Source of the DNA: a virus
Taxonomy: Duplodnaviria; Heunggongvirae; Uroviricota; Caudoviricetes
IMG/VR virus record: IMGVR_UViG_2531839439_000012
Location: 1-4,790 of that record
Strand: one strand, 5' to 3'
DNA: 4,790 nt
Part shown: one piece after another, positions 1 to 4,790 of the stretch
How positions within the stretch are numbered: the stretch's first letter is position 1
Layout of the letters: each line of letters opens with the position of its first letter
Notes under the pieces: model-generated
Seen by the model: only the letters and a program-made list of their open reading frames with translations
The model's database searches: none
Told to the model about the DNA's origin: nothing
Position numbers and translations under genes: made by a program

Positions 1-1
1 A

Positions 2-1051
2 CTGGTCAATGACCCGCGGGCCGTCACGCTGCATATTTCACCGGATATCGATGAACGGGAATTTATTACCCGTTATCTCGGTAATATGAATATCAGGATA
101 AGCCGTAAAAAGGGCGTTGATTATATTTACAGTCATACACCTGCCGCACCAGAGGAGCCGCTGAAATCCCTTGTTTACACGCCCCGTTACCGGACAGTGG
201 AGTATCTGCATCAGGCGCTTTCCGGTCTGGGTCAGCTTCCGGCCGCACAACAGCCGGTTCAGGGGGCAAACGGTGAGCAGACATGGCAGGCGGTCAGCAG
301 TGGTACCCGGTTCATCAGTGCATCCGGGGATGTGTTTGTGTTCCGGGGAACGGCCCGGGAAGTTGAGCTTGTCCGGCAGCTTCTGCCGCAGATTGACGTC
401 AGGGCACAGGAGGTTTCGGTTGCCGGGTATGTGTTTGAGGTCCAGACCAGTGAGCGTAACGGTTCAGGTCTGGCGCTGGCCGCAGAGCTTTTATCCGGTC
501 GTTTCAGTATCACCATGAGCAGCGCATCGGGGCTGGATAACTTTATTCGCCTCAGCACGGGGTCTGTTGATGCAATGTATGAGTTATTCAGGACCGACAG
601 CCGTTTTCAGGTGGTCAGTTCGCCACGTCTGCGCGTTATCTCCGGTAAGGAGGCGGTTTTCAGCGTGGGGTCTGATGTGCCGGTTCTGTCATCAGTGTCA
701 TGGCAGGATAAGGTTCCGGTGCAGTCCGTGGAATACCGCAGCAGCGGGGCTATTTTTCGGGTAAAACCCACCGTGACGCAGGATGTGATAGGTCTGGATA
801 TCGTTCAGCAGCTGAGTAACTTTGCAAAAACGGATACGGGGGTGAATAACACGCCAACGCTGATAAAGCGCGAGGTGTCCACGTCGGTGAGTCTGAATGA
901 CGGTGATATCATTGTGCTGGGCGGACTGGCGGAGAACAAGACATCAAAGGCGCGGACAGGGCTTTCATTTCTGCCGGATGTGTTTGGTTCAGACTCTGAT
1001 GAACGTGCGAAAACCGATATCATCGTCGTTCTTCAGGCCCGGCGGGTCTGA
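2..1051 (+). CDS. Secretin-family outer-membrane channel protein (phage pIV / T2SS GspD / type IV pilus secretin-like), C-terminal ~350 aa; 5' end lies upstream of window
   Basis: Frame is open from position 2 with no in-frame stop. The ATG at 86 has no Shine-Dalgarno and its N-terminus (MNIRISRKKG...) is not a signal peptide, so the true start is probably upstream. The C-terminal ~170 aa carry secretin-domain hallmarks: FQVVSSPRLRVISGKEAVFSVGSDVPV, VEYRSSGAIFRVKPTV, NNTPTLIKREVSTSVSLNDGDIIVLGGLAENKTSKARTGLSFLPDVFG, DIIVVLQARRV. Stop TGA at 1049-1051. Family assignment is from recalled motifs, not a search. Confidence 0.85.
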   Translation: MVNDPRAVTLHISPDIDEREFITRYLGNMNIRISRKKGVDYIYSHTPAAPEEPLKSLVYTPRYRTVEYLHQALSGLGQLPAAQQPVQGANGEQTWQAVSSGTRFISASGDVFVFRGTAREVELVRQLLPQIDVRAQEVSVAGYVFEVQTSERNGSGLALAAELLSGRFSITMSSASGLDNFIRLSTGSVDAMYELFRTDSRFQVVSSPRLRVISGKEAVFSVGSDVPVLSSVSWQDKVPVQSVEYRSSGAIFRVKPTVTQDVIGLDIVQQLSNFAKTDTGVNNTPTLIKREVSTSVSLNDGDIIVLGGLAENKTSKARTGLSFLPDVFGSDSDERAKTDIIVVLQARRV

Positions 1052-1449
1052 GTGTGTGATGATGTCCGTCAGGACATGTAAGGCGGCATGATGAAGTTTC
1101 ATGTGACGCAGATGTCAGCCCGCCGAAACCGGGGAGAACGTGTATATGTCACGGGACAGCGCAACGCGCCGCCTGCCAGACCGCCTTTTAGCGGGCATTC
1201 ACCGAGACGAGCGGCGCAAGACGGGAGTCGGACAGTCATTGATGAAGCCGTTCGATGGAATTGATGACTGACAGGCCGTCTTTTTGAGCCGGAATTTTCA
1301 AACACAGACCCTGATGTGTTATCAGCGGTAATGTTTTACTCGTTACAATTTGCGCACTCTGTTATGTGGCAGTGGACTGGTACATACGGAGGCGGACATA
1401 ACGTTGGTGGAGACGACCATCCACAATTCATTACCTTAATTTTACCAGC

Positions 1450-1487
1450 GCGCCTTATAGTTACCTGATTTATAAGGCGCTTTTTTT
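1450..1487 (+). terminator. Rho-independent terminator (10-bp perfect stem GCGCCTTATA / TATAAGGCGC, 11-nt loop, T7 tract)
   Basis: Stem left 1450-1459, loop 1460-1470, stem right 1471-1480, then TTTTTTT 1481-1487. On the opposite strand the stem is not followed by a T-run, so it is oriented for + strand transcripts. Confidence 0.65.
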
Positions 1488-1525
1488 CTTTCTTGTGTTT
1501 CCTGCAGTCAACAGAACCAGCCTGA

Positions 1526-1547
1526 TCTTATGACAGTGCGCATAAGA
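1526..1547 (+). promoter_or_regulatory. Inverted repeat TCTTATG-N8-CATAAGA (possible operator or protein-binding site)
   Basis: TCTTATG at 1526-1532 and CATAAGA at 1541-1547 are exact reverse complements separated by 8 bp. The site lies between the terminator and the TMP gene. Confidence 0.25.
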
Positions 1548-1577
1548 TTCATTACGTTAAAAACGACATGGGTATAT

Positions 1578-1616
1578 ATCAGTACTGATTTTACTGGAAA
1601 AACTGGATTTTCAGTA
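1578..1616 (+). repeat. 12-bp perfect palindrome ATCAGTACTGAT overlapping phased TACTG/ACTGG repeats separated by A4/T4 tracts
   Basis: ATCAGTACTGAT at 1578-1589 is its own reverse complement. ACTGA 1584-1588, ACTGG 1593-1597 and ACTGG 1602-1606 are direct repeats at exactly 9-bp spacing, with an inverted copy CAGTA at 1612-1616. The intervening TTTT/AAAA tracts are phased near one helical turn. Confidence 0.4.
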
Positions 1617-1769
1617 TCAATCCCAAAGAAGTATGGCTAATGCAGCTTTATAAGCAATTGATTCTATTAAGCGATGTTTTTTGTGATTGGTTGAAGCAAA
1701 CCTGAACACGAAGTCACTGAAGCGGCAATAAACTGTTTCATGGCGGAATTATTAGAGTAAAGAACAATC

Positions 1770-1804
1770 GGAGGTATCCGCACAACGCGGATATACAGGA
1801 CATG
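1770..1804 (+). promoter_or_regulatory. Structured translation-initiation region of the TMP gene: SD GGAGG (1770-1774), then a 7-bp stem-loop (1775-1793), then 8 nt, then ATG 1802
   Basis: TATCCGC (1775-1781) and GCGGATA (1787-1793) are exact reverse complements around loop ACAAC. GGAGG is 27 nt from the ATG in linear sequence, but folding would leave an effective spacing of about 8 nt. No other in-frame start lies between the upstream stop (1718-1720) and 1802. Confidence 0.3.
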
Positions 1805-3703
1805 AGTAACACAAACGTAGGTAGAATTTATTATGAGGTTGATGCGCGCACAGGGAAGCTATTAACCGCAGGGAAACAAGCTGACGACGCATTCGATCGC
1901 ATTGAACGCGGCGCAAAGCGCGCTGATAACTCAATCAACAAACTGAATACGACAATCAGCAAACTGGCGGCGGCGGTTAACGTTGGCCTGCTAATGATGG
2001 CGGCTAAACGCTTTATTGAAATCGCGGACAACGTAAAACTACTACGCGCCCGTGTATCCCGGCTATCCGGTAGTCTGGTTGAAGCTAAGGCTAATTTTAG
2101 CGGCATTCTTGAGATCAGCAAGCGAACTGGCATGAAGATTGAGGATACTACGAAGTTATGGGAAAACCTTACTTCAGCTTTGTCTGATTCAAACGCTACC
2201 AGGGGCCAGATCTTACAGTTGACAGAGACACTACAGCAGATCGGGCGTATTGGTGGTAGTTCATCCGAAGAAGCCGCAAACGCCTTGCGACAGTTAGGGC
2301 AATCTATTAACGGCGGGATTGTCCGTGCTGAGGAATTTAACAGCATCCTGGAGGGTATGCCGGAGCTATGGCGGCGCGTAGCAAGTCAGATGGGGATCTC
2401 AATGGGTGAGCTACGTCGCCGCATGTTGGATGGCAAACTGACGGCTGAGGATGTAGTAAATGCAATCCTGAAAGGATCAGGCGAAATCGAAAAAGAATTT
2501 AACAAGCTGCCGACAACCACGGAACAGGCAATGACAGAGCTATCAACAAATTTTAGCCTGTTACTGGAAACCATCGACCAGACGCTGCATGTTACTGAAC
2601 TGGTCGGTCGCGGTATTAAAACGCTGGCTGATTATTGCCGCGAGCTATCCGGCTGGTTTAAAACGCTGAAATCTGATTCTGCGTCATTGGCTGATAAGTT
2701 ATGGACACTTGCCGCAGCCTTTGAGCCGTTTGTGCCGGGCCTTGATTTATTCCGCGCTCAAGCCAAACAAACCGACTTCTTAGGCGCAGCGCCAGACAAT
2801 CAATCTACGGGTTTTGTGTCAACGCTACCGACACAGCAGGCCACCACTGATATTAAGCTGAAAGACAATGGCGGTGGAGGTGGCAATAAACCGAAACGCG
2901 CGCAGAAAGATCCGGCAGAAGAATCGCTGAAACGGAAACGCGCAGAACTGGAACGACTTAACCAGGGCTTTGCTGAGGGTAGCAAAGAGGCTGAAATGTG
3001 GGACGCCGTTCAGGAAATGGGCGCTAACGCAACGGCAAAACAGGTTAGTGAGATGAAAAACCTTGCGCACCTGATTTACGAAACAAACGCCGCGCGTGAG
3101 CATCAAATCGAACTGGAAGAAAAAGCAAAACAGCTTAATGAGCAATTTAATCCCGTTGATGCGCTCAAACAACGCCATGCCCTTGAAATGCAACAGGCTG
3201 ATGAGCTATTCAACAAACAGATGATTAACGAGGAAACGCTAAACGCGCTTAAACAACAGCACGCAGAAGAATTGCTTGCCTCGCAGTGGGAACAATTCCG
3301 GGCGCAAGGTGGGATTAATGGCCTGATTGGTGACATGGCTGATGGCCTGAGTGGTGGCGCTACAAATGCCGTTGTCGGCCTGCTTAATGGTACGCAGAAC
3401 CTGGAAACCGCTTTCGCCAATATCGGGACTACCATTCTCGGAAAAGTGGTGGGAAGTATCGCTGAGATGGGCGCTGAATACGTCAAACAAATGATCTTAA
3501 GCGAGGCAGCCAGCGCCAGCGCAATGAGCGGACAAGCGGCAACAGGCGCATCAATCGCATCATCAATGGCCCCGGCAGCAGCGGCGACAGCTACCGCGAC
3601 AATGGGGACGGCCCCGATGGTCGCAATGTCAGCTATCAGCGCCTTGATGGCTGGCATTACTGGCTTGTTTTGGCGGTGGTCGCTACAACGGCGGCGCGGT
3701 TAA
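1802..3703 (+). CDS. Phage tail tape measure protein-like (N-terminal TMP domain, K/E/Q-rich coiled-coil, Gly/Ala-rich hydrophobic region); frame as given ends prematurely at 3703
   Basis: 633-aa ORF. Residues ~150-230 (LRQLGQSINGGIVRAEEFNSILEGMPELWRRVASQMGISMGELRRRMLDGKLTAEDVVNAIL) match the conserved tape-measure N-terminal domain as I recall it. A long charged helical segment (KRKRAELERL...QQHAEELLASQWEQFRAQ) is followed by a Gly/Ala/Ser-rich hydrophobic segment, as is typical of TMPs. The ATG at 1802 is the first start after an in-frame stop at 1718-1720. Confidence 0.85.
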   Translation: MSNTNVGRIYYEVDARTGKLLTAGKQADDAFDRIERGAKRADNSINKLNTTISKLAAAVNVGLLMMAAKRFIEIADNVKLLRARVSRLSGSLVEAKANFSGILEISKRTGMKIEDTTKLWENLTSALSDSNATRGQILQLTETLQQIGRIGGSSSEEAANALRQLGQSINGGIVRAEEFNSILEGMPELWRRVASQMGISMGELRRRMLDGKLTAEDVVNAILKGSGEIEKEFNKLPTTTEQAMTELSTNFSLLLETIDQTLHVTELVGRGIKTLADYCRELSGWFKTLKSDSASLADKLWTLAAAFEPFVPGLDLFRAQAKQTDFLGAAPDNQSTGFVSTLPTQQATTDIKLKDNGGGGGNKPKRAQKDPAEESLKRKRAELERLNQGFAEGSKEAEMWDAVQEMGANATAKQVSEMKNLAHLIYETNAAREHQIELEEKAKQLNEQFNPVDALKQRHALEMQQADELFNKQMINEETLNALKQQHAEELLASQWEQFRAQGGINGLIGDMADGLSGGATNAVVGLLNGTQNLETAFANIGTTILGKVVGSIAEMGAEYVKQMILSEAASASAMSGQAATGASIASSMAPAAAATATATMGTAPMVAMSAISALMAGITGLFWRWSLQRRRG

Positions 3704-3995
3704 CGGTGGCAATCTTTACAGGGTTGGTGAGCACGGTGTCCCTGAGTTATTTACCTCTACTGGCGGGAAACAGTACATGATCCCCGGCGAGGGTGGACGA
3801 GTTACACCGGGCCGCGATCTGGTTGGCAGTGGTGGCGGCATCACACTGAACGTAACAAACAACATCCAGGCGACAAACGGCTGGACTGAAGACGACTCAA
3901 AAGCGTTGCAACAGACTATAGAAAACACAGCAATGCGCCTGATGCAGCGCGAGTCGCAAAGACCTGGAGGCATGTTACAACCACGGCGGCGTTAA
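3672..3995 (+). CDS. C-terminal segment of the same tape-measure-like protein, in the +1 frame (frameshifted continuation); the 6-frame track shows its ATG-initiated part as 3777..3995
   Basis: The frame with codons at 3672, 3675, ... is open from 3648 to the TAA at 3993-3995. It encodes GGGRYNGGAVNGGNLYRVGEHGVPELFTSTGGKQYMIPGEGGRVTPG..., which resembles the conserved TMP C-terminus (compare phage lambda gpH ...GNLYRLMRGY... and the common ...YRVGE.GPEL... pattern). Both frames are open across 3648-3703, and the junction sits at the T4 run 3668-3671. Confidence 0.6.
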   Translation, partial: GGGRYNGGAVNGGNLYRVGEHGVPELFTSTGGKQYMIPGEGGRVTPGRDLVGSGGGITLNVTNNIQATNGWTEDDSKALQQTIENTAMRLMQRESQRPGGMLQPRRR

Positions 3996-4165
3996 CCAAA
4001 TCCCACGCCAGGGGGATAGACTGGCGGACCTTCAAAGACGGTCGCACACCGTGTTTAACATAATTTATTGTTTTTTGCTTGCTCTTATTATTGCAGCCGT
4101 TAGAGTTGGCGTGGCAGTTTTTCACCTGTTTCGCGTGTTGCTGTGTTTTTGGGGAAGAAAAACAA

Positions 4166-4261
4166 ATGAGAAGGCTTATATACCTGGTATTTATGCTATT
4201 TGCTATCGGGCAAGCCATAATTTTTATCACAATGCTGATCTGTCTGATGCTCTTTAGTTAA
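4166..4261 (+). CDS. Candidate small hydrophobic membrane peptide (31 aa: MRRLIYLVFMLFAIGQAIIFITMLICLMLFS)
   Basis: ATG at 4166 is preceded by GGGGAAG (4151-4157) at about 8-nt spacing. The peptide has a basic N-terminus (RR) followed by one predicted transmembrane helix. It is the internal-start version of the 60-aa ORF 4079..4261. I recognise no homolog, and short ORFs in AT-rich DNA are often spurious. Confidence 0.25.
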   Translation: MRRLIYLVFMLFAIGQAIIFITMLICLMLFS

Positions 4262-4790
4262 CTCCACCAGGATCCGCGCCGGGCTTTGCTATACAGACCA
4301 ATCACTCTTAATATAAGCTATTGATTCTTCTTAATTATAACCGCGCGTTAGAATTAACCTTCCCGCCATAAACGCTCCTACGCAAAAATCCCTCACAACT
4401 ACCCTGTCAATTTGCCAGATTTCACGTACACGCGCCCATATCCCCGCTACCGGATACACGCCCGCTTATACCGGACACCGGATAAACAAAGGCCCAGGTA
4501 GTTAGCAACCTACCCAGGCCCCGCGCATGGTTTTAATGCCATCATTATTAAGCATGCTAATACTAATCAAATCATAATTAGCACAACTTATAATCGAACA
4601 GAAAACACACAAACCAGATAATGATTTTTTCTGGTTATACTTATCTAAAAAAGTGGTATAGGATGTAACTTATTATTTTGTAAGGATAAATTTATTGCGT
4701 GGTAAGATGAACAGGCTTGTGCACCTCCCGAAAAACACGCGAAAATCAAAGTGTTCTTTCTTTTTTTGTTTTTATTTTTTCATTTTCTCT

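Follow-up and report, generated by a model that had tools for sequence, protein, structure and literature searches.

Tail tape measure proteins (TMPs) encoded by phage satellites are already known; they were first demonstrated in 2026 in the PLEs of Vibrio cholerae, whose own TMP replaces that of the helper phage ICP1 in chimeric tails (Mathur, Boyd et al., Nature 2026, PMC12987554). One of these elements, PLE11, adds the protein Rta, which blocks the helper TMP (PMC12987554). Putative tmp genes have been reported in other satellites, including cf-PICIs (PMC12987554 Extended Data Fig. 10), and mycobacterial EPIP satellites carry a TMP as well (PMC12822802). Here, we describe a TMP gene that stands apart from any other tail gene in a 4,790-bp stretch of Escherichia coli DNA (IMG/VR record IMGVR_UViG_2531839439_000012, positions 1 to 4,790), the whole of which we call the window. 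Our analysis indicates that this gene is almost certainly a maintained component of a family of compact mobile elements that includes CPZ-55 of E. coli K-12. By analogy with the PLEs, the reading that we somewhat favour is that of a satellite-encoded TMP that would be built into the chimeric tails of a helper phage.

The CPZ-55 family resembles the PLEs in being a compact element, here probably parasitic on phages, that lacks most structural genes and encodes its own TMP. There is no sequence relationship between the two groups, and several features set them apart. While the PLE helper ICP1 is a myovirus, homologues of CPZ-55-family genes suggest lambdoid siphoviruses as helpers; we detected no counterparts in the CPZ-55 family of the chaperone TAC and of BhuB, which PLEs encode, or of the Rta of PLE11; and the PLE11 TMP is 95 residues shorter than that of its helper, whereas the CPZ-55-family TMP is of equal length. 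The cf-PICIs and EPIPs are satellites with a small terminase subunit (TerS) and a TMP, and cf-PICIs also carry an HNH gene, but they encode capsid, scaffold or connector proteins, of which the CPZ-55 family has none; the capsid, portal, protease and connector genes that mark a cf-PICI are absent from the islands described here. Satellite P4 of E. coli, an element of ~11 kb that lives either integrated or as a plasmid, is not known to have a TMP, and no sid, psu, delta or alpha homologues were noted among the annotations and family searches of the CPZ-55 family. The closest phage, the mEp021-like lambdoid phage mEp013, shares a full-length TMP with the same termini and has HNH and TerS homologues; unlike the islands, it carries its TMP in a complete tail module with M, L, K, I and J downstream, though set off by opposite-strand genes. 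CPZ-55 of K-12 itself (intZ, yffL-yffS) has the eutB-eutA site, the integrase family and the stem-loop and box2 backbone in common with the TMP-bearing elements but is a TMP-less derivative, and because the TMP cassette is absent it never suggested the nature of the family. In our literature search, no paper connected CPZ-55, yffO or yffP with a TMP, with satellites or with a role as terminase. What appears to be new here is a type of element without capsid genes and without a detectable chaperone or hub, which has a Xer site, an island and plasmid life and, as we infer, siphovirus helpers.

A solitary tape measure gene at a composite locus

The window spans all of contig AQCR01000005.1, which belongs to the draft E. 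coli assembly GCA_000354495.2, and the strain's own flanks lie beyond reach. Two mobile elements are joined in it, namely the end of an inovirus and a piece of a CPZ-55-family island. Positions 1535-4790 are 99.5% identical to the island that E. coli TOK-001 carries between eutB and eutA, where CPZ-55, annotated as a 'cryptic prophage', lies in K-12, and positions 1-1553 match the right ends of inovirus prophages in E. coli JNE25-005 (locus L003) at 95-97%. The arrangement is therefore nested, with an inovirus within a satellite-like element within the eut operon.

The open reading frames (ORFs) at 1802-3703 (633 residues) and 3777-3995 (72 residues) are pieces of one gene. A preliminary description of the window, made from its letters alone, had taken this gene for a frameshifted TMP of ~730 residues, and the domain search it proposed bears this out. 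Taking one extra T out of 3668-3671 yields a restored protein of 730 residues. The TMP matches Pfam TMP_3 (E 1.8e-53, residues 70-260, 181.5 bits against a curated cut-off of 41) and, end to end, PHROG 1538 'tail length tape measure protein' (4-728 on 3-805 of 811), as well as PDB chain 9occ_M, 'Tail tape measure protein gp18' (E 8e-111, match 28-700). The island TMP is 50% identical to the 735-residue TMP of mEp013 over residues 4-734 and 42-44% identical to the TMPs of Salmonella phages Oslo and SPN3UB, and Pfam and family scans revealed no extra domain gained. Judged by these similarities, the gene is shown to encode a bona fide, originally full-length siphovirus TMP. The TOK-001 copy is intact, 734 residues long and 99.5% identical to that of the window, which has a 12-nt in-frame deletion after 3534. 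This deletion, at 3534/3535, falls where GCGGCAACAG is repeated over a short distance, in the hydrophobic, Ala/Thr-rich part of the protein.

The window copy is frameshifted, provided that the extra T does not stem from a homopolymer error, and it has lost the conserved C-terminal module of ~100 residues (RYNGGAVNGG...QPRRR), which is the best-conserved region among the TMP types and mEp013. A programmed frameshift at the T-run was considered and rejected, as relatives are in frame at this position and no slippery heptamer was recognised.

The flanks of the gene largely have the character first ascribed to them. The upstream 750 bp (1052-1801) have a GC content of 45.6% overall and 37.8% in 1535-1801, the downstream 795 bp (3996-4790, given earlier as ~800 bp) one of 40.8% against 51.4% in the TMP gene, and both contain short ORFs only; the terminator noted upstream is also found, as a hairpin at 1450-1480 followed by a T-run (-15.8 kcal/mol, z -4.5). 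While its AT-rich, ORF-poor composition thus stands, the upstream DNA is not a simple spacer, since its first 483 bp (1052-1534) are foreign; they form the non-coding end of an inovirus prophage, and a dif-like site marks the join. No chaperone (G/GT) or tail-tip gene is present in the window.

The CPZ-55 family of islands at the eut site

To place the gene in context, we opened nine eut-site islands from complete genomes (TOK-001, PI6, O157:H7 PV15-279, ATCC 8739, MB19, EFF60, fM51a, O178:H19 and C7), together with K-12 and three metagenome or isolate contigs, some of them from Logan. Ten full-length TMP-bearing relatives share one layout. Their left part consists of intZ (where present), accessory genes, a gene for an excisionase-like helix-turn-helix (HTH) protein, an HNH endonuclease gene, three to five small ORFans, a small-terminase-like gene and a partner ORF, which is either yffP or encodes a protein of 129-133 residues; the right part consists of a stem-loop, a dif-like site, a leader, the TMP gene (726-790 residues), a second stem-loop, a sequence that we call box2 and further accessory genes, followed by eutA. 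These are members of a compact element family of 8.5-12 kb, to which CPZ-55 of K-12 also belongs. Its members either have been inserted between eutB and eutA by IntZ, a tyrosine integrase, or occur as circular episomes, and most of them have the TMP gene. IntZ and a 63-residue HTH_17/excisionase-like protein are found in most islands, with intZ missing from TOK-001 and from circular forms.

By annotation and by Pfam, PHROG and NCBIfam scans, the ten TMP-bearing relatives contain no capsid, portal, tail-tube, tail-tip or lysis gene, and none of them has chaperone (G/GT) genes. If the integrase and TMP genes are set aside, the longest island ORFs reach ~270 residues at most, and none matches a head family; the small ORFans have no match in Pfam, PHROGs, NCBIfam or PADLOC, and PADLOC found no defence family among ten island proteins. 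The earlier observation that no tail genes adjoin the TMP gene therefore extends from the window to its relatives, and inspection of the flanks in related strains, as had been proposed, found an IntZ integrase but no phage structural genes besides the TMP and packaging-type genes. Among the top matches from 5,426 complete E. coli genomes there was no prophage with a closely related TMP, all nine of the contexts opened being eut-site islands. A TMP scan of genome contigs returned one distant Brenneria match only, the peptide patterns used being too specific.

In O178:H19 the TMP gene overlaps the preceding gene by 8 nt and is thus part of the same operon as that gene. CPZ-55 of K-12, whose yffN-yffO-yffP genes are 85% identical to those of TOK-001, is without exactly the cassette of dif-like site, leader and TMP gene, and has a single stem-loop fused to box2. 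Circular elements lacking the TMP likewise have one stem-loop copy fused to box2. Since the stem-loop flanks the cassette as a direct repeat, it is plausible that the cassette was lost by recombination between the two copies. Homology between island subtypes with differing upstream modules starts exactly at the dif-like site.

A tape measure protein under selection, with conserved ends and an exchangeable middle

The island TMPs fall into three types, A, B and C, the last represented by the 790-residue protein of MB19. Within type A (window, TOK-001, PI6 and O157), dN/dS is 0.10 at a dS of 0.21, and within type B (ATCC 8739, EFF60 and fM51a) it is 0.09-0.12 at a dS of 0.14-0.39, so that at the level of coding sequence the TMP is shown to be under purifying selection. 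In a collection of 5.8 billion proteins, type A is represented by more than 120 distinct sequences, which share 92-99% identity and are nearly all of 728-734 residues, from E. coli, E. marmotae and one further enterobacterium; one allele was found on 396 contigs. Dead copies are occasional, being those of the window and of EFF60, which has an internal stop.

Overall, the three types are 35-42% identical, but their first ~50 residues are 71-82% and their last ~110 residues 70-97% identical between types, and the same N- and C-terminal modules are conserved in the mEp013 TMP. The shared termini have an omega of 0.05-0.12 at saturating dS, indicating that they are conserved as protein rather than being recently exchanged DNA. 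The C-terminus of a TMP sits in the tail tip complex. The ends of the protein are the parts that must fit tail partners, and the middle is free to be replaced. Since the termini are shared with a phage TMP, the protein would still be working inside a tail; the suggestion of a TMP-domain protein in a non-tail context is thus borne out for the genome neighbourhood only, and not for the protein itself.

Packaging-type genes related to those of mEp phages

The YffO-type protein encoded in the islands is small-terminase-like (Pfam Sf6_terminase, 6e-10; PHROG 1482, 1e-14). All island TerS variants are 30-50% identical to the TerS of mEp013 or mEp554, with E down to 4e-16, and the island HNH proteins are 27-34% identical to the HNH protein of mEp013. 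The best phage match of the TMP is in mEp013 and that of the TerS-like protein in mEp554, both of which were isolated on E. coli K-12. In mEp013 the HNH gene is followed by terS and the gene for the large terminase subunit (TerL), and the tail tip genes are of the lambda type (M, L, K, I, J). In this region of mEp013 (L008 8303-13562), opposite-strand, moron-like genes lie on both sides of the TMP gene, so that neither the tail genes upstream of it nor the M/L/K/I/J tip genes adjoin it. The premise that a TMP gene is always found next to G/GT and tip genes is therefore not strict.

YffP has no phage homologue and no Pfam or PHROG match and is confined to E. coli; its alignment comprised 19 E. 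coli clusters, and the AF2 model had a pLDDT of 36.6 and was unusable. A search for a cos site shared between the islands and the packaging regions of mEp013 and mEp554 found none, a 36-nt intergenic motif and terminator-like hairpins being all that they have in common. This motif (TTCTATTTTTCGCGTAGCAACGCGTAAACATGTATT), with a small hairpin, lies between the TerL gene and the next gene in mEp013 and mEp554, and in some family members it recurs at ~94% identity ahead of the first small ORF, where the surrounding DNA is unrelated.

Integrated and circular forms

Several relatives are circular. A metagenome contig (L024) with a 141-nt terminal overlap closes to a 10,794-bp circle with a TMP gene, and a Logan contig (L025, 30-nt overlap) and an isolate assembly contig (L026) represent an identical 10,638-bp circle with a TMP gene. 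Both circles have genes for the HTH protein, HNH and TerS, the partner ORF and a TMP gene of type A, whose nucleotide sequence is 97% identical to that of TOK-001, and 5' of the TMP gene they have a near-consensus dif site, GGTGCGCACAA-GATCCA-TTATGGTAAA, with 10/11 and 10/11 arm matches. Neither contains an integrase or resolvase gene, and NCBIfam searches with the ORFs of a circular element found a weak excisionase-type HTH only. In circles without the TMP (L015/L016, 8,537 bp; L017, ~8.5 kb), a serine resolvase gene follows those of TerS and YffP in the same slot, and L017 also encodes a DUF5906/VapE-like helicase. The closed plasmids pRHB34-C15_2 (9,003 bp) and pRHB29-C22_2 (9,653 bp) (L031 and L030, respectively) have ORFs in the same order and of the same sizes, with a recombinase gene at the end, their TerS- and YffP-sized ORFs being annotated as hypothetical and known by order and size. 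A comparison of the circular TMP element with plasmids gave partial matches only, to plasmids without the TMP.

The presence of either a dif-like site or a resolvase gene in the same slot suggests that these serve the resolution of multimers of a circular replicon. Since both eut-site islands and circular forms are found, the CPZ-55 family lives both integrated and as a small plasmid.

A dif-like site ~230-270 bp 5' of the TMP start is present in most CPZ-55-family elements (L001 20001-20028; L024 5285-5311; L025 2193-2219). It is degenerate in fM51a and in locus L022, absent from locus L020 and near-consensus in the integrase-less circles.

An inovirus joined at the dif-like site

The ORF at 86-1051 is the C-terminal part of an inovirus secretin and is 96.9% identical to the last gene of the tandem inovirus prophages of E. 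coli JNE25-005, in which the genes for a replication initiator, coat protein, Zot and secretin follow one another. In JNE25-005 (L003 1-22000), at least three tandem inovirus copies with hybrid dif-like junctions between them lie in the chromosomal terminus/dif region. The inovirus part of the window had no match in the GenBank phage set.

The dif-like site at the junction agrees with the dif of K-12, located in its genome, at 10/11 and 9/11 arm positions, and is the single such match in the window, where none was expected. The uninterrupted site of TOK-001 reads AGTGCGCATTA-GATTCA-TTACGTTAAAA, with a XerC arm ending in CATTA compared with the phage-type CATAA in the window, and the inovirus attP in JNE25-005 reads AGTGCGCATAA-ATATCA-TTTGTCTCACA. 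The window site therefore combines a phage-type XerC arm with an island-type spacer and XerD arm, the crossover lying exactly at the boundary between XerC arm and spacer, where XerC cuts. The position of this crossover and the origin of the parts on either side point to use of the site by XerCD, and thus, indirectly, to integration of the inovirus by Xer recombination at the dif-like site of the element. An assembly chimera was considered for the junction and rejected, since attP and the island site share only 9-11 identical bases and the arm carries the phage-type base.

IMEX-type filamentous phages (CTXphi, CUS/Ypf-type) integrate at dif. The inovirus junction at the XerC-arm/spacer boundary resembles theirs, but the target here is a secondary dif-like site on a mobile element and not the chromosomal dif. 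Dif-like sites on mobile elements can thus capture Xer-dependent phages. At this locus, the junction lies 240 bp upstream of the TMP ATG and separates the TMP gene from the TerS operon.

A possible satellite role and its alternatives

With HNH, TerS and TMP as its only genes for phage functions, an element could form particles solely with the capsid, large terminase subunit and tail of a helper, and on this basis we think it probable that the CPZ-55 family is a family of phage satellites. Its members would be satellites of mEp013/mEp021-like siphoviruses. During lytic growth of the helper, the HNH and TerS-like proteins of the element would divert packaging to the element, while the island TMP would enter helper tail assembly through its conserved termini, its C-terminus docking in the J/I/L/K/M-type tip complex and the helper's chaperones and tube protein assembling around it. 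The chimeric tails would be of unchanged length (734 versus 735 residues) but would differ in the central DNA-entry portion of the TMP, which goes into the cell together with the DNA. TMP-directed systems, namely Tab (PMC10884400), Rta (PMC12987554) and the HK97 gp15-type exclusion cited in these papers, recognise the central part of the TMP. Particles of the element could evade such exclusion or defence, or the element could block the helper's own TMP. For the incorporation of the island TMP into chimeric helper tails as such, we regard the odds as even. More tentatively, and with somewhat less confidence in the whole than in this step, we propose an unrecognised class of E. coli satellite with a P4-like dual life, as an IntZ island or a Xer- or resolvase-resolved episome, which would hijack mEp013/mEp021-like siphoviruses through HNH and TerS and would carry exchangeable TMP alleles with docking termini, so that exclusion or defence directed at the TMP would miss the DNA-entry portion of the resulting chimeric tails; the dif-like site would be a secondary landing pad for filamentous phages.

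Several observations weigh against this proposal. Satellite status is read from gene content, and the link to a helper is one that we infer. There is no recognisable TerS in PI6, ATCC 8739 and EFF60, where two small ORFs replace TerS and its partner. The ORFs adjoining the TMP gene have no family match, and no analogue of the tail-assembly chaperone or baseplate hub was detected, unlike in PLEs. A replication gene was recognised in one circular relative only (L017) and in none of the TMP-bearing islands. Scans of the IMG/VR viral contigs with the TMP returned a single mEp-like phage, of 54.5 kb, and a fragment of a GC-rich phage that is unrelated, but no member of the family, those with YffP returned nothing, and the GenBank phage set held no CPZ-55-family match when queried with the circular TMP element. 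The equal lengths of the island and phage TMPs predict no change in tail length and no visible length phenotype, and the tail of ~110 nm estimated in the preliminary description applies equally to the helper. Finally, the window copy, being frameshifted, says nothing on activity.

The main rival to the satellite proposal, with which it is also compatible, is a defensive role, in which the TMP would be a decoy or poison subunit that co-assembles with the tail or titrates its partners, blocking the virions of an invader without serving the element's own transfer. Tail assembly, and specifically the TMP, is indeed a target of mobile-element defences, as in Tab (PMC10884400) and Rta (PMC12987554), the combination of conserved termini and a swapped middle would suit a dominant-negative protein, and the allelic diversity of the TMP is arms-race-like. 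Nevertheless, we consider this role rather unlikely, since the retention of full length and purifying selection along the whole protein fit a ruler and not a decoy, the co-encoded TerS and HNH point to packaging of the element itself, and no PADLOC model matches any island protein. A role outside the virion, with the TMP fold co-opted for example for a membrane or periplasmic function or for plasmid biology, would accommodate the presence of the gene on plasmid-like circles without another structural gene and its position beside a dif-like site, but it is highly improbable given that the protein is colinear with virion TMPs over its whole length, even at the termini, where tail partners are contacted, and that no new domain was gained.

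The proposal of a decayed prophage, whose lambda-like tail operon would have lost all its genes except that of the TMP, one of the two origins offered in the preliminary description, agrees with the annotation of K-12 CPZ-55 as a cryptic prophage, with the damaged copies in the window and in EFF60 and with the missing integrase of TOK-001. It is nonetheless very unlikely, because at least ten diverged elements have one architecture in which the TMP gene occupies the same slot and is never accompanied by other tail genes, because dN/dS is ~0.1 with more than 120 full-length alleles, because integrase-less circles of 10.6-10.8 kb carry the gene, and because the other island ORFs are without phage homologues. 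A lone TMP call at the eut locus should not be taken as a sign that a tailed prophage has decayed there. As for the damage in the window, the frameshift and the inovirus junction might both be artefacts of sequencing or assembly, the strain really having an intact TOK-001-like locus; the draft dates from around 2013 and has the extra base within a homopolymer, and the 633-residue product is on record for this contig only. We hold this to be doubtful, given that the junction falls exactly between XerC arm and spacer, next to an arm with the phage-type base, and that the stretch of identity between attP and the island site is too short to mislead an assembler. With the frameshift, the inovirus cutting the TMP gene off from the TerS operon and a nearest relative without intZ, the window locus is probably a dying copy of a satellite, not a dying tailed prophage. 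In that nearest relative, TOK-001, intZ has been lost together with the adjacent accessory region (L001 15602-16255), and because of the loss of intZ its island is probably immobile.

If the satellite reading is true, the family would extend satellite-encoded TMPs to siphoviruses of E. coli, with phages isolated on K-12 as candidate helpers. Its natural TMP allele swaps would serve to map the parts of the protein that have to fit the helper, namely the termini, and those that may vary, namely the middle. CPZ-55, long regarded as a 'cryptic prophage' of K-12, would then be re-labelled as a degenerate satellite.

Other features of the window

The coordinates of the annotated features are collected in Table 1.

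Table 1 Features of the 4,790-bp window, with the positions of the 36-nt motif in other loci
Feature	Position	Strand	Basis
Inovirus secretin gene, 3' part (pIV/GspD-like), cut by contig start	1..1051	+	Pfam Secretin E 1.2e-25
Inovirus prophage right end, non-coding, with terminator	1052..1534	+	Match to JNE25-005 prophage copies
Hybrid dif-like XerC/XerD site AGTGCGCATAA-GATTCA-TTACGTTAAAA, inovirus/element junction	1535..1562	.	Comparison with TOK-001, JNE25-005 and K-12 dif
TMP leader, Shine-Dalgarno GGAGG 1770-1774, hairpin 1774-1794	1563..1801	+	Conserved in islands with TMP types A, B and C
Tape measure gene up to premature stop, 633 aa	1802..3703	+	ORF list, Pfam, PHROG, mEp013 and 9occ_M matches
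T-run with one extra T (frameshift)	3668..3671	+	TTTT versus TTT in TOK-001 and other type A copies
TMP C-terminal part, shifted frame (ORF 3777-3995), RYNGGAVNGG...QPRRR module	3672..3995	+	Restored protein 730 aa
Island right arm, mostly non-coding	3996..4790	+	Colinear with TOK-001 to locus position 23267
Stem-loop motif CGCCAG-N9-CTGGCG, downstream edge of dif+TMP cassette	4006..4026	+	After TMP stop in 7/7 islands checked
Small ORF, 31 aa, very hydrophobic (MRRLIYLVFMLFAIGQAIIFITMLICLMLFS)	4166..4261	+	Intact in TOK-001, PI6, MB19 and EFF60
Box2, CCTACGCAAAAATCCCTCACAACTACCCTG, conserved family backbone sequence	4377..4406	+	3' of stem-loop in K-12 CPZ-55, O157, TOK-001 and circular L015
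36-nt intergenic motif	L012 7443-7478; L017 4397-4461; L008 (mEp013) 181-216; L029 4966-5001		

The TMP leader is 239 bp long, and its hairpin has a folding energy of -12.4 kcal/mol (z -3.6). The Shine-Dalgarno sequence lies 27 nt 5' of the ATG with the conserved 8-bp hairpin between them, and in other islands this hairpin is kept with base changes; it would bring the Shine-Dalgarno sequence and the ATG closer together. A sigma-70-like promoter was sought in the leader and none was found.

The stem-loop downstream of the TMP gene folds no better than shuffled sequences (z -0.57). A second copy lies 5' of the dif-like site in TOK-001, O157 and MB19, so that the stem-loop brackets the dif and TMP cassette as a direct repeat, and the motif (CGCCAG...CTGGCGG) follows the stops of both yffP-type and TMP genes (L001 19963-19989; L010 6644-6667). 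Further into the right arm there is a terminator-like hairpin at 4489-4522, and by homology the arm ends ~200 bp before eutA, which in TOK-001 occupies 23481-24884. The 31-residue ORF is unannotated in the TOK-001, PI6, MB19 and EFF60 records, and a small membrane protein and a toxin-like peptide are both conceivable as its product.

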